DNA of 64,000 bases from Thermodesulfobacteriota bacterium (GTDB lineage Bacteria; Desulfobacterota; BSN033; UBA1163). Location: assembly GCA_047519465.1 (NCBI GenBank), contig JAPVTA010000227.1, positions 5,687-69,686 of the forward strand, written 5' to 3'. Every line of letters begins with the position of its first letter. The first letter of the stretch is position 1. A program made the translations under genes and the position numbers. Below are positions 10,886-33,752 of the stretch, one piece after another. Below the pieces are notes generated by a model. That model was not told where the DNA came from and did no database searches. It was given only the letters and a program-made list of their open reading frames with translations.

Positions 10886-10962
10886 CGCGGGGTGGAGCAG
10901 TCCGGTAGCTCGTCGGGCTCATAACCCGAAGGTCGCTAGTTCAAATCTAGCCCCCGCTACCA
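10886..10962 (+). tRNA. Initiator tRNA-fMet (anticodon CAT), CCA encoded
   Basis: 77 nt 'CGCGGGGTGGAGCAG..GGGCTCATAACCCGAAGGTCG..TTCAAATC..CCCCCGCTACCA', near-identical to E. coli tRNA-fMet (C1:A72 mismatch and three G-C pairs in the anticodon stem). Confidence 0.9.
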
Positions 10963-12071
10963 AACACATCAAGGGGTTGCGAACCGGCAGCCCCTTTCTC
11001 ATTTCCGGAACTGTCCAAAAAGTGTCCATCCCAGAAGGAAAGAAAGGCCGAACCGTCGCTTCGCGTCAGATTTGGAATGAATTTCGCGTACCGCTTAAAG
11101 AGCATCTCCGTCGAAGCGTGCCCCATCATCTGAGCCACCCAGTTCGGATTCTCACCCGATGAAAGCATGAGCGTTGCAAAAGTGTGACGGATCTGATACA
11201 TCGTCCGATCTCTCAGGCCGGCTTTCTTCAAGGTAGGGTACCACACCCTGTTTCTCAGGTTGTCGTTGTCCAAAGGTGTGGCGTTCTTTGTCACGAAGAC
11301 ATATTCTCCCAAAAAGAAGGTCTTTGCCTTTTGATCGAGAAGGACTTTTTTGACGGGAGGAAGCATGTCGATCTCCCGGTAGCTCGACTCGGTCTTGGGG
11401 CTTGATTCGATCCCGTGGACACGGCCTTCGCGGACGCTGATCTTTCCTAAGATGAGGTCGACGTTTTTCCACTTAAGGGCGATCAACTCGTTGGGTCTCA
11501 TTCCAGTTAGAAAAGCTGTGACAAAGTAGTTGAAAGAGTCGCGGTCAACCTTCCTGAGGAACCTCTTGACCTCGTCAAAACTGAGCGGGAAGATCTCCGG
11601 CTTGGGCTCCTTGAGCCTCTTGACGAACTGACAGGGGTTCTCCTTGATTTCCTTTCTCCGGTAGGCCGTTTTGAAGAGGGTTTTGAGAGGAACCATGATG
11701 TTGTTGATCCGTTTGGGGCTGAGATGGCCAAGGGTTGAAATAAAGCGCTCGATGTCTGCCTCCATGATCCTTGAGAGAACCATCTCGCCGAAGTAGGGAT
11801 TGAGGTAACTTCTGAAGATAGAGAGATCATCCCGCAGGCTAGAAGATTTCACACGAAGCTTTCTCTGTTTGAGCCACTCCTCGGCGTGATCCTTGAACCG
11901 GATCTTTCTTTCTTCGAAGATTCCGAGAAACTCGCCCTTGGCCTTCTTGACCTCAAGATCTTTCAAGACCAGAAAAGCAAGCTCCTTCGAGGGGCCGACC
12001 TTTTTTCGTCGCCTCTTTCCGTTGATCCGAAGATCGATAAACCAGTGTCTTCCGTGTTTGAAGATTCCCAT
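10947..12071 (-). CDS. int: Tyrosine site-specific integrase (phage integrase family)
   Basis: Catalytic region 'IRHTFATLMLSSGENPNWVAQMMGHASTEMLFKRYAKF' (HxxR ... Y); N-terminal arm-binding/SAM-like domain. The 3' end overlaps the tRNA/att core. Confidence 0.85.
   Translation of the reverse strand: MGIFKHGRHWFIDLRINGKRRRKKVGPSKELAFLVLKDLEVKKAKGEFLGIFEERKIRFKDHAEEWLKQRKLRVKSSSLRDDLSIFRSYLNPYFGEMVLSRIMEADIERFISTLGHLSPKRINNIMVPLKTLFKTAYRRKEIKENPCQFVKRLKEPKPEIFPLSFDEVKRFLRKVDRDSFNYFVTAFLTGMRPNELIALKWKNVDLILGKISVREGRVHGIESSPKTESSYREIDMLPPVKKVLLDQKAKTFFLGEYVFVTKNATPLDNDNLRNRVWYPTLKKAGLRDRTMYQIRHTFATLMLSSGENPNWVAQMMGHASTEMLFKRYAKFIPNLTRSDGSAFLSFWDGHFLDSSGNEKGAAGSQPLDVFGSGG
11012..11030 (+). promoter_or_regulatory. 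19-bp motif TGTCCAAAAAGTGTCCATC (candidate recombinase/Xis arm-type site), left copy
   Basis: 18 of 19 bases identical to 33547-33565 (TGTCCATAAAGTGTCCATC), in the same orientation, each just inside an island end. Confidence 0.35.
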
Positions 12072-12189
12072 CTTGGGCTCCTTTCAGCCCGGTGGACTGA
12101 AAGGACACCAGATAGATTCCACCCCGTATTCTCTTGTCAAAGAACAATGATTAAGAATACGGGTACCAGGAATCCATCTGAAAGTCAAG

Positions 12190-12414
12190 TTACAAATTGG
12201 CGGACGGCTTTCTACTTGGACGTCCTTCAAAGGAGAATCGCTTTAACCACGCTTCGATTGATGAGGGTCGAAAGCGAATGCAGCGACCCAGCTTTAGAAA
12301 TGGGATGCGCCGCTCGTGGACCCACTTTCTTATGGTCGATTTCTTGACTCCGATAAGATCGCTTAATCCAGGGACGTTGAGAAGTTTTTCTGCTGGTGAT
12401 GGTTCAGTTTTCAT
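12190..12414 (-). CDS. AlpA/excisionase-family HTH DNA-binding protein
   Basis: 74 aa with 'LIGVKKSTIRKWVHERRIPFLKLGRCIRF' (AlpA/Xis-type winged HTH), directly upstream of and co-directional with int. Confidence 0.7.
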   Translation of the reverse strand: MKTEPSPAEKLLNVPGLSDLIGVKKSTIRKWVHERRIPFLKLGRCIRFRPSSIEAWLKRFSFEGRPSRKPSANL

Positions 12415-12494
12415 CTTGACTCCCTCGGTTTCTTTGATTATGTAAGATCATACTCCTGGGGGATAATTTTTGGGAAGGAGAGTAGGAAGCTAGG

Positions 12495-32026: not shown

Positions 32027-32941
32027 ATGGACCTTCCCAAATCAGTCACTATCGTTGAAGTTGGCCCGCGTGACGGACTTCAAAACGAGGCCAATTTCGT
32101 GCCAACTGAGCATAAGATTGAGTTAATCAATCGTTTATCAGAAACTGGACTAAGACGCATTGAAATTACATCCTTTGTTCATCCCAAAGCGATCCCTCAG
32201 CTTCAGGATTCGGAGGAGATAGTAAAAAGAATTGAACGGAAACCCGGTATTATTTACTCTACCCTTGTTCCGAACGAGAAGGGTTTACAAAGAGCTTTAG
32301 CTGCTGAAGTTGAAGAGATTGCTCTCTTCGTTTCTGCGTCGGAGACGCACAATCAAAAAAATGTAAAAATGTCCATCAGCGACTCACTGAAAGGATTTCG
32401 AAATATCGCTGAAAAGGCACTTACTCACGGAATCCGGATGAGAGGATACGTCGTGACAGCTTTCGGGTGTCCTTATGAGGGGAGGATAAATCCTGAAAAG
32501 GTAGAGTCCATTGTAGATGAATATAGGACTTTAGGTGTTCATGAAATTGCATTAGGGGATACAACTGGAATGGCTAATCCCGTTCAGGTGAGTCGAATGG
32601 TGAGCAGAATTCTTCGGCGATTGGATGGAAAGACTAGCCTTGCCCTTCATTTTCATGATACTCGCGGTGCTGCCCTGGCAAATATTTTGTCAGCTCTCCA
32701 AGAGGGAGTTGTGATTTTTGATGGCTCCATCGGAGGTTTGGGTGGATGCCCTTATGCTCCAGGGGCCTCTGGGAATGTTGCAACAGAGGATCTGGTGAAC
32801 ATGTTAGAAGAAATGGGAATCGAAACAGGTATTGATCTCAACAGATTGATCGGTTGTGCTAGGTACGCCAGAACAATCATCCAAAAAGACCTTCCAAGTC
32901 ATCTCCTCAGCTCAGGAACAATTTGCTGGGAAGGGACTTAA
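32027..32941 (+). CDS. mvaB: Hydroxymethylglutaryl-CoA lyase
   Basis: 'VTIVEVGPRDGLQNE' is the N-terminal HMGL motif; later 'HFHDTRG' and 'GGLGGCPYA' are present. Confidence 0.8.
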   Translation: MDLPKSVTIVEVGPRDGLQNEANFVPTEHKIELINRLSETGLRRIEITSFVHPKAIPQLQDSEEIVKRIERKPGIIYSTLVPNEKGLQRALAAEVEEIALFVSASETHNQKNVKMSISDSLKGFRNIAEKALTHGIRMRGYVVTAFGCPYEGRINPEKVESIVDEYRTLGVHEIALGDTTGMANPVQVSRMVSRILRRLDGKTSLALHFHDTRGAALANILSALQEGVVIFDGSIGGLGGCPYAPGASGNVATEDLVNMLEEMGIETGIDLNRLIGCARYARTIIQKDLPSHLLSSGTICWEGT

Positions 32942-33546
32942 ATTTCCTTTCTTTCAGATTGTGGTCCTCCCTGTATTTAAGTTTTTCATTGTCACTAAAA
33001 AAGAAAGGGAATTTTTCTATCAGGGATTGACAATCCACAAGCGAGTGAAAGCGAAAACCGGAGGGGAAGAGGAGAAATCTATAGACTGCGAATTACGATA
33101 TCGAAGGAGTTTCGATATCTGCTATAAACACTCCTTTTTCGATACCTCAGGAAAGTTACGGTTGGGTATTCATATATTCAATGTAGACTAGATGAAAGAA
33201 AGCCGAAAATTTGCTTACTCTGGAAGCATCAGGCATGCTTTCGCTCTGATAATCCTAAACTGCTGAGCCTTGGAATATCTGAACATTGGTAGAGTATGCA
33301 TCAAAGTCTAATTTTCATTTTCCCTTTGTCCGAGGAATTTTCTTATGCATTACACTTAAACCGTTTCTTGAAGGATTCATTGATCAGGTTGGTTATAGAT
33401 CCAAAAAAGATCTGCTGGTCGCAAGAGGGAGTTTGGTCAGAAAGCTATTTATTCAAGTATAAGTGTACACGGTGCCTTAAGGACTGAATCAAAGAGTTGA
33501 TTCATGATTGATTTTCAGGGAAAGGAAGATTGGGGGATCTACCTGG

Positions 33547-33565
33547 TGTCCATAAAGTGTCCATC
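33547..33565 (+). promoter_or_regulatory. 19-bp motif TGTCCATAAAGTGTCCATC, right copy (pair with 11012-11030)
   Basis: See left copy; this one lies ~145 bp inside attR. Confidence 0.35.
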
Positions 33566-33707
33566 GGGCAGTAAAATTGGTATCTTTTGGTCACAAGTGA
33601 GTCACTTTTTTAAATCAATTGTTAAGGGGTTGTTTAATTGTGAAATCGACAGATTACCTTTGATTTTTGAGGCTTAGGCTCAGATTTCATGGAAGATCAG
33701 AGGAGCA

Positions 33708-33752
33708 CTCATAACCCGAAGGTCGCTAGTTCAAATCTAGCCCCCGCTACCA
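33708..33752 (+). repeat. attR: 45-bp direct repeat of the tRNA-fMet 3' half, from the anticodon loop to CCA
   Basis: Identical to 10918-10962. The next ~20 bp (A-CA-TCAAGGGGTTGCG) also resemble the sequence following the genuine tRNA. Confidence 0.8.

Follow-up and report, generated by a model that had tools for sequence, protein, structure and literature searches.

A probable site-specific integrative island of 22.8 kb in the initiator tRNA gene of an uncultured Syntrophaceae-like bacterium

The locus and its boundaries

The 64-kb stretch of DNA analysed here (the window, to which all statements on the uniqueness of motifs and repeats refer) comes from contig JAPVTA010000227.1 of assembly GCA_047519465.1, from an uncultured syntrophic, Syntrophaceae-like lineage of Thermodesulfobacteriota (deltaproteobacterial), and holds a probable genomic island of 22.8 kb at an initiator tRNA gene (Table 1). 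On the left flank, the genes dsbD-lptG-lptF are followed by tRNA-fMet, a complete tRNA-Met(CAT) ending at 10962 that is the only tRNA called by ARAGORN in the window, with Rfam in agreement. Its sequence (CGCGGGG...GGGCTCATAACCC...CCCCGCTACCA) carries the marks of an initiator, read directly from the letters: a C1xU72 mismatch that leaves 1:72 unpaired, G29-G31:C39-C41 in the anticodon stem, and A11:U24.

The 45-mer at 10918-10962, running from the anticodon loop to the end of the gene, recurs exactly and in the same orientation at 33708-33752, as a first-pass annotation of this DNA had reported, and identity reaches 46 bp with the next base. No other copy of the 45-mer exists in the window at up to three mismatches (none is expected in shuffled sequences), and scans of the whole window by blastn-short and Smith-Waterman alignment found no third or degenerate tRNA copy. 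The tRNA half was not repeated within ~10 kb in any of 20 related loci; the 46-bp repeat is therefore not a dispersed element, an objection that the first-pass annotation had itself raised. Similarity between the two ends extends to 64 bp at 95%, because a terminator-like hairpin follows each copy. Such a hairpin stands after the tRNA in every related locus, whether occupied or empty. The tRNA 'fragment' at 33708 should be annotated as an attachment (att) site and not as a gene.

Integrase, excisionase and end motifs

Just inside the left boundary lies the gene of an intact tyrosine integrase, IntA, whose stop codon falls 16 nt within the tRNA gene; the Pfam domains of the protein bear out its earlier identification as an integrase adjoining the tRNA. 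IntA keeps the family-invariant or near-invariant residues R192, K226, Y292-x-x-R295-H296, H318 and Y328, and scores far under the cut-offs of XerC/XerD and integron models. Beside it is the gene of an excisionase-family helix-turn-helix (HTH) protein, Xis, whose orthologues in loci L032 and L039 match PF12728 HTH_17 (numbers L002-L122 denote the related genomic or metagenomic loci that were compared with the window).

The two ends are further linked by the motif TGTCCA-N5-TGTCCA, of which the 64 kb contain two copies without mismatch, one just inside each end of the island; with one mismatch allowed, 0.23 matches would be expected in the window. This placement puts both ends in one element, and would set the operon for breakdown of hydroxymethylglutaryl-CoA (HMG-CoA) described below inside it. 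The same motif adjoins the tRNA in the orthologous islands of L032 and L033 and also in L034, and other integrase lineages found at tRNA-fMet have short direct-repeat pairs of their own at the equivalent position (TGCTACTGC beside the integrase remnant of the right flank and in L015, CGTTACCA in L018 and TGTGCTA in L013), a pattern suggesting that repeat pairs beside the tRNA are arm-type integrase sites. The left TGTCCA repeats (IntA residues ~343-351) are also the reverse complement of the codons for a conserved C-terminal peptide, DGHxLD(T/S); DNA motif and peptide therefore constrain one another.

We consider it very probable that the 22.8 kb are a site-specific integrative genomic island, which arose when IntA recombined a 46-bp attP core with the initiator tRNA gene. 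Under this model, the crossover would be centred on the anticodon, with IntA joining the core of the circularised island to its exact match in the chromosome and probably also binding the TGTCCA-N5-TGTCCA arm sites inside both ends. The tRNA would stay complete after integration, with its 3' half and terminator hairpin now supplied by the island, and its original 3' half would end up 22.8 kb away as attR. Excision would be directed by the excisionase-family protein, with a predicted restored attB of ...GCTCGTCGGG + CTCATAACCCGAAGGTCGCTAGTTCAAATCTAGCCCCCGCTACCAA + GCATTTCAAGGGGTTGCGCATT and a predicted circle attP of ...AGATCAGAGGAGCA + core CTCATAACCCGAAGGTCGCTAGTTCAAATCTAGCCCCCGCTACCAA + ACACATCAAGGGGTTGCGAACC. 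The arrangement is that of Islander-type islands (Hudson, Lau & Williams 2015, PMC4383910): an intact tRNA at one end, a direct tRNA fragment at the other and a tyrosine integrase of neither Xer nor integron type inside, with island-free related sites found between species but not within the species. The first-pass annotation, which had proposed an island in tRNA-fMet bounded by attL and attR, is thus upheld by the intact integrase, the excisionase family, the matched end motifs and relatives inserted at the same site.

Table 1. Features of the island and its borders (window coordinates)
Feature	Position	Strand	Basis or remark
Initiator tRNA-Met(CAT), complete	10886..10962	+	ARAGORN, Rfam; 3' half probably island-supplied (attL)
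attL core	10918..10963	+	46-bp exact repeat, anticodon loop to CCA plus one base
Tyrosine integrase IntA, 374 aa, intact	10947..12071	-	PF14659 Phage_int_SAM_3, PF00589 Phage_integrase; phrog_1 E 8.5e-70
Terminator-like hairpin	10971..10996	+	probably island-borne, replacing the native tRNA terminator
Candidate arm-type sites, P' arm	11012..11028	+	TGTCCA-N5-TGTCCA; in IntA C-terminal coding region, 50 nt beyond tRNA end
Excisionase-family HTH protein Xis, 74 aa	12190..12414	-	TIGR01764, 44.2 bits (cut-off 28.8)
orf289, orphan all-helical protein	12495..13364	+	conserved backbone gene; likely C-terminal HTH
Non-coding stretch, ~930 bp	13365-14299		39% GC; holds iteron-like array and inverted repeat
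Iteron-like array	13962..14038		about seven tandem 11-bp units, AAGnCCTTGAr
Perfect 11-bp inverted repeat	14110..14138		7-nt spacer; ~160 nt upstream of recD2
RecD2 SF1B helicase, 721 aa	14300..16465	+	TIGR01448, 948 bits (cut-off 500); Pfam domains
PD-(D/E)XK (Cas4-like) nuclease	16462..17370	+	PF12705; PADLOC Cas4-like model E 2e-23; start overlaps recD2 stop
255-aa protein with HExxH motif	17550..18317	-	HHETGHALHH, from translation
362-aa protein	18401..19489	-	no Pfam or NCBIfam family match; PDB matches marginal
Putative lipoprotein, DUF2846-like	20518..21075	+	signal peptide, LLTSC lipobox; PF11008 under its cut-off
DJ-1/PfpI family protein	21669..22430	+	PF01965
Class III nucleotidyl cyclase-TPR fusion, 763 aa	22492..24783	+	PF00211 and TPR families
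HTH_3 and cupin regulator	25467..26021	+	first gene of catabolic/transport block
Liv-type ABC importer	26074..30722	+	binding protein (26074-27294), two permeases, two ATPases; gene calls from GCA_047519545.1
Class II 'degradative' HMG-CoA reductase	30751..32019	+	TIGR00532, 498 bits (cut-off 260)
HMG-CoA lyase	32027..32941	+	NF004283, 422 bits (cut-off 246)
Candidate arm-type sites, P arm	33547..33563	+	TGTCCA-N5-TGTCCA; non-coding DNA, 145 nt ahead of attR core
attR core	33708..33753	+	displaced 3' half of tRNA-fMet
Terminator-like hairpin with T-run	33761..33789	+	after displaced tRNA half
Integrase remnant IntB, outside the island	33774..34280	-	phrog_1 E 1.5e-19; 21 nt past displaced tRNA half

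The same target in relatives

Relatives were drawn from a scan with one genome per species, which gave 28 loci with LptF identity of at most 85%, all of them in metagenome-assembled genomes (MAGs) labelled Thermodesulfobacteriota, Deltaproteobacteria or Syntrophaceae. The order dsbD-lptG-lptF-tRNA-fMet is kept among relatives, and most of 20 related loci have the very same tRNA sequence. Homologues of IntA numbered 578 at E <=1e-20. Two of these, 89% (L032) and 82% (L033) identical, come from two other species, where they occupy the lptF/tRNA-fMet junction as in the window and are accompanied by the same xis and orf289; the flanks of these organisms are just 73-81% identical in DNA. A third, 59% identical (L034), lies in a tandem array of tRNA-fMet halves, and two more at 52% identity (L036 and L037) abut an initiator tRNA in another genomic context and another organism. 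These relatives, at 52-89% identity, are thus all found at tRNA-fMet with differing genes around them, indicating an integrase clade that is specific for tRNA-fMet and a cargo that is variable.

In L034, a metagenome contig (1-11620), an integrase fragment and a tRNA-fMet 3' half precede a 9.8-kb island, which encodes a 1281-aa protein, SSB, Xis and the 59%-identical integrase and is followed by another tRNA-fMet half. Neither of the two halves belongs to a full tRNA, and the array therefore has at least three members. In L036 and L037 (1-11300) the cargo is a BREX system, with BrxA, BrxB, a 1214-aa protein, a HEPN protein and a methyltransferase of Eco57I/N6_Mtase type.

The first-pass annotation had proposed searching relatives for an empty tRNA-fMet site, and between species such sites exist: tRNA-fMet is island-free, with its half unrepeated, in at least six species (L003, L007, L008, L016, L028 and L029), and the island is therefore not universal. 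In five of these (L007, L008, L016, L028 and L029) the tRNA has its own terminator, beyond which lie housekeeping genes for a 4HBT thioesterase, an RF-1-domain (ArfB-like) protein, PhoU and an ABC ATPase (pstB-phoU-arfB-thioesterase type). L003, one of the nearest species in the sample and, at ~86% nucleotide identity in the flank, the closest of those with a tRNA at the site, has the same immediate neighbour as L028. In L008, the tRNA is separated from the PhoU/thioesterase neighbours by ~4 kb (2091-5826), with genes for an M50 peptidase-CBS protein and for a NorB-like oxidase and with neither integrase nor repeat.

An integrase or arm-like repeats adjoin tRNA-fMet in about 8 of 20 loci of the clade, and the lptF-linked tRNA-fMet is a hot spot for islands there. 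This single initiator tRNA is a recurrent landing pad, used by at least four integrase lineages, each with its own short repeat pair.

The site is also prone to breaks in assembly. A short-read MAG of the same organism (GCA_047519545.1) contains the whole region at 99.98-100% identity, spread over four contigs whose ends map to window positions 10965, 10916/21327, 21231/25270 and 25318. We considered the break at attL as a sign of excision and rejected it: the overlaps at the other junctions differ, and attR is unbroken. Contig ends at most ~1.7 kb from tRNA-fMet are frequent in other MAGs too (L003, L005, L010, L012 and L015), and could be caused by repeats, strain mixture or coverage. For these organisms, the tRNA-fMet locus is a frequent point of breakage in metagenome assemblies, which should be read with caution there.

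The right flank and the history of the site

Beyond attR stands the remnant of a second integrase, IntB, which aligns to IntA residues 118-214 (28% identity) and then jumps to residues 311-331; the N-terminus and catalytic centre are therefore absent and the remnant decayed. A sequence 78% identical to IntB abuts the full tRNA in L015. With a decayed integrase against attR, the right flank is therefore not ancestral chromosome, and none of the ancestral neighbours of the tRNA (pstB-phoU-arfB-thioesterase type) is found anywhere in the window. The position of the remnant directly after attR indicates that the site has gathered islands in tandem, a recognised outcome at tRNA genes (PMC4383910). 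In the simplest history, an island of IntB would have arrived first and the IntA island would then have entered the rebuilt tRNA, so that the attR of the present island would be the former attL of the older one. The far end of that older island lies outside the window.

Following IntB is a cluster (34473-45251) that encodes a TetR regulator, E1 alpha and beta, an alcohol dehydrogenase, a short-chain dehydrogenase/reductase, an enoyl-CoA hydratase, E2, E3 and two acyl-CoA dehydrogenases. Dozens of metagenome contigs have it too, with proteins 65-88% identical, and in none of the 80 metagenome loci compared (L043-L122) is there a tRNA or integrase upstream of the TetR-E1 alpha genes; it therefore gives no pre-insertion state. 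The cluster may be cargo of the older island or may have been moved beside the tRNA by deletion or rearrangement.

Backbone genes

Islands related to this one share a backbone, which comprises the integrase, Xis, orf289, the iteron-like array with the inverted repeat, RecD2 and the Cas4-like nuclease; the rest is exchangeable cargo. The gene orf289 adjoins xis in L032, L033 and L039, and in L039 the pair is followed by unrelated cargo (MFS and TRAP transporters, among others). The island of L042, which occupies tRNA-Arg(ACG) and has a different, SAM_1-type integrase, also contains an orf289-like gene, and in it the non-coding region with a related iteron-like array and the junction between the recD2 3' end and the nuclease gene are kept as well. 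The inverted repeat is likewise kept in L042, with one pair altered on both arms (A:T to G:C). Beside its orf289-like gene, L042 also has E1/E2/E3, thiolase and acyl-CoA dehydrogenase genes resembling those of the right flank of the window.

The family of Orf289 is very small, with 27 homologues at 52% identity or more and 30 cluster representatives in 1.84 billion proteins. The protein matched nothing in Pfam, PHROGs, NCBIfam, PADLOC, PDB, or phage and plasmid records, and an exhaustive profile search was uninformative, even when its remote matches were in turn compared with Pfam. Its AlphaFold2 model (pLDDT 76) is all-helical, with local HTH-like matches only.

The helicase-nuclease pair had been taken as defence-like cargo by the first-pass annotation, a view that our results do not favour. 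PADLOC recognised no complete defence system in the island, only single-domain resemblances (a type IV RecD model, the Cas4-like nuclease and a PycC cyclase domain) with no partner genes, and the pair travels with the orf289/iteron backbone even under a different integrase, as in L042. RecD2-like helicases are present in 88 phage records and 425 plasmid records, RecD2 itself matches PHROG 4412 and the nuclease PHROG 69; given how common such helicases are on plasmids and phages, and the lack of a complete PADLOC system, we read the pair as DNA-handling backbone of the island itself rather than defence cargo. The backbone may serve maintenance, replication or recombination of the excised form. 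That orf289, the 11-bp iterons, the inverted repeat, RecD2 and the Cas4-like nuclease form a previously undescribed maintenance/replication module, able to pair with unrelated integrases, is a speculation that we put forward very tentatively. If true, islands with this module would form a new family, replicative yet neither conjugative nor viral, by which catabolic operons and defence systems would spread among uncultured Syntrophales-like bacteria.

The int-xis pair and the iteron-like region, together with the phage and plasmid occurrences of RecD2-like helicases and the two PHROG matches, might be expected of a prophage, a phage satellite or an integrative and conjugative element. Phage-type and conjugation families were sought in open reading frames of at least 90 aa: no capsid, portal, terminase, tail or lysis family was found, and no relaxase, coupling-protein or type IV secretion family was found in the island (Pfam, NCBIfam). 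Matches of RecD2 to TraA/TraI models were confined to the helicase domain and far under the cut-offs, and PHROGs matches were limited to integrase, excisionase, helicase and exonuclease. IMG/VR contained no close relatives of the integrase or orf289 (its nearest integrase was 24% identical), and, as stated above, orf289 is absent from phage and plasmid records. We therefore regard any of these three identities as highly improbable and retain that of a plain integrative island.

Two neighbouring observations concern lptF. In two related species, L004 (8400-11340) and L002 (1-6602), there is a second lptF copy, in which similarity to the window ends at ~10834-10843 and no tRNA is present; that of L004 is flanked by scrambled recD2 and cyclase-TPR fragments, and L002 has an orf289-like piece. 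These copies may be the trace of an island that once took lptF along.

Cargo and the extent of the element

The gene list of the first-pass annotation proved accurate for the cargo, each gene being reproduced by Pfam or NCBIfam. The cargo closes with what would be a complete operon for uptake and breakdown, in which a Liv-type importer precedes the genes of a degradative HMG-CoA reductase and an HMG-CoA lyase, set 8 nt apart and forming an mvaAB-type pair. Its gene content suggests that the operon would turn an imported mevalonate- or HMG-like acid, the putative substrate, into acetyl-CoA and acetoacetate.

One could suppose that the segment is composite, two or more islands having entered the same tRNA in succession and the junction between them having eroded, with only ~10.9-25 kb belonging to the IntA element and the operon at 25.4-33 kb left behind by another island or by the chromosome. 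Tandem accretion is seen at this very site, in the IntB remnant after attR, and in the L034 array; related islands have the backbone in common and not the cargo; GCA_047519545.1 breaks at 21.3 kb and 25.3 kb; and numerous homologues of the HMG-CoA reductase reach 80-95% identity, the few with a named source including Thermodesulfobacteriota and Smithella MAGs. Set against this, the second TGTCCA-N5-TGTCCA lies beyond the operon, 145 nt from attR, placing the operon between matched IntA ends; no second integrase occurs between 12 kb and 33.7 kb; and there is no internal tRNA-like remnant, the best candidate for an internal att site (a 10-mer at 24792, on the border of two cargo blocks) having been rejected as at chance level. 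A composite origin therefore seems to us improbable, and we continue to treat the 22.8 kb as a single island.

Among the remaining cargo, the 255-aa protein had no family match in Pfam, PADLOC, NCBIfam or PHROGs, and its HExxH motif hints at a metallopeptidase-like enzyme. A Pycsar reading of the cyclase-TPR protein was rejected: the weak PADLOC match to PycC is confined to the cyclase domain, and the island has no effector. A promoter-like motif (CTTGACAAATT, then a T-rich stretch) precedes four genes, namely the tRNA (10847-10866), the lipoprotein gene (20489-20504), the HTH-cupin regulator (25419-25456) and the TetR gene of the right flank (34420-34457); the copies include an identical 16-mer at 20489 and 34427.

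Present-day mobility

Several findings weigh against an integrated island in the form that we propose. Within the species no empty site came to light, and here the expectation of the first-pass annotation was disappointed: the only other same-species assembly, the near-identical GCA_047519545.1, carries the island too, and the attB/attR junction, searched for exactly in JGI assembled metagenomes, gave 0 matches. The right flank is not the ancestral neighbour and therefore gives no precise before/after comparison. Composition, which had been suggested as a check, does not single out the island, whose GC equals that of the flanks and whose tetranucleotide correlation (0.85-0.88, against a reference that included the flanks themselves) barely differs from theirs (0.87-0.96); the donor was therefore probably a relative, or the island is old. 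Given the many close homologues of its HMG-CoA reductase, the operon seems widespread among related organisms and could be DNA typical of the lineage and not freshly imported cargo. Lastly, orf289 has no recognisable fold relative in searches with its predicted model, a point that bears on the proposed role of the backbone.

Some of these findings would also suit an island that arrived by integration and has since become an immobile part of the lineage's chromosome, in that no polymorphism was found within the species, composition is host-like and transfer genes were not found. Against such a relic stand repeats that are perfect over 46 bp, full-length int and xis genes with the catalytic residues of the integrase conserved, unlike the decayed IntB, and arm-like motifs intact at both ends. 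We regard fixation as a real possibility, albeit an unlikely one, and infer that the island may still be able to move.

Comparison with known systems and significance

The mvaAB operon for mevalonate catabolism in Pseudomonas mevalonii places a degradative class II HMG-CoA reductase beside an HMG-CoA lyase. The present pair adjoins in the same direct manner, and differs from mvaAB in being joined with a Liv-type importer and an HTH-cupin regulator, in an anaerobic host and inside an integrase island; in this way a complete operon for uptake and HMG-CoA breakdown is placed on a putatively mobile element. In layout only, the sequence of int-xis, a DNA-binding protein, an iteron-like region and a helicase resembles that of Staphylococcus aureus pathogenicity islands and other phage-inducible chromosomal islands; unlike these, the present island has no recognisable primase or Rep protein, lacks genes for packaging or interference, and has no known helper phage.

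In Escherichia coli, metV encodes tRNA-fMet. This gene is among the tRNA genes most often targeted by islands (PMC7545054) and harbours, for instance, the 32-kb PAI-metV of strain CFT073 (PMC3573123). The E. coli metV islands have the initiator tRNA-fMet as their target in common with ours, with unrelated host and cargo. The statement in the first-pass annotation that islands at tRNA-fMet are uncommon is thus not sustained, either by metV or by the proportion of occupied loci in the present clade. PYG1 of Pyrococcus yayanosii (21.4 kb, 44-bp repeats, tRNA-Gln; PMC9897764) is nearly equal to the present island in size and repeat length, and its repeat is likewise part of a tRNA gene; it differs in being archaeal, in using another tRNA and in having, according to the same source, its tRNA gene at the opposite end of the island.

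The closest correspondence is with the Islander-type islands, whose attP is centred on the anticodon. A complete tRNA at one end, a 3' fragment that points the same way at the other, an integrase inside beside the tRNA and a repeat that begins in the anticodon loop are all found here, with no structural difference; the host, an uncultured Syntrophaceae-like member of the Thermodesulfobacteriota, and the orphan backbone gene orf289 set the present island apart from those described. It is a textbook anticodon-centred tRNA-gene island, an ordinary kind of element, and the accepted understanding of how such islands work is unchanged by our results. What they add is a precisely mapped and probably mobile element for uncultured syntrophic anaerobes, whose horizontal transfer is hardly known, together with the picture of a tRNA hot spot filled in tandem, an integrase clade apparently specific for tRNA-fMet, and an orphan backbone module, the sole part that could be new in comparison with known tRNA-gene islands.

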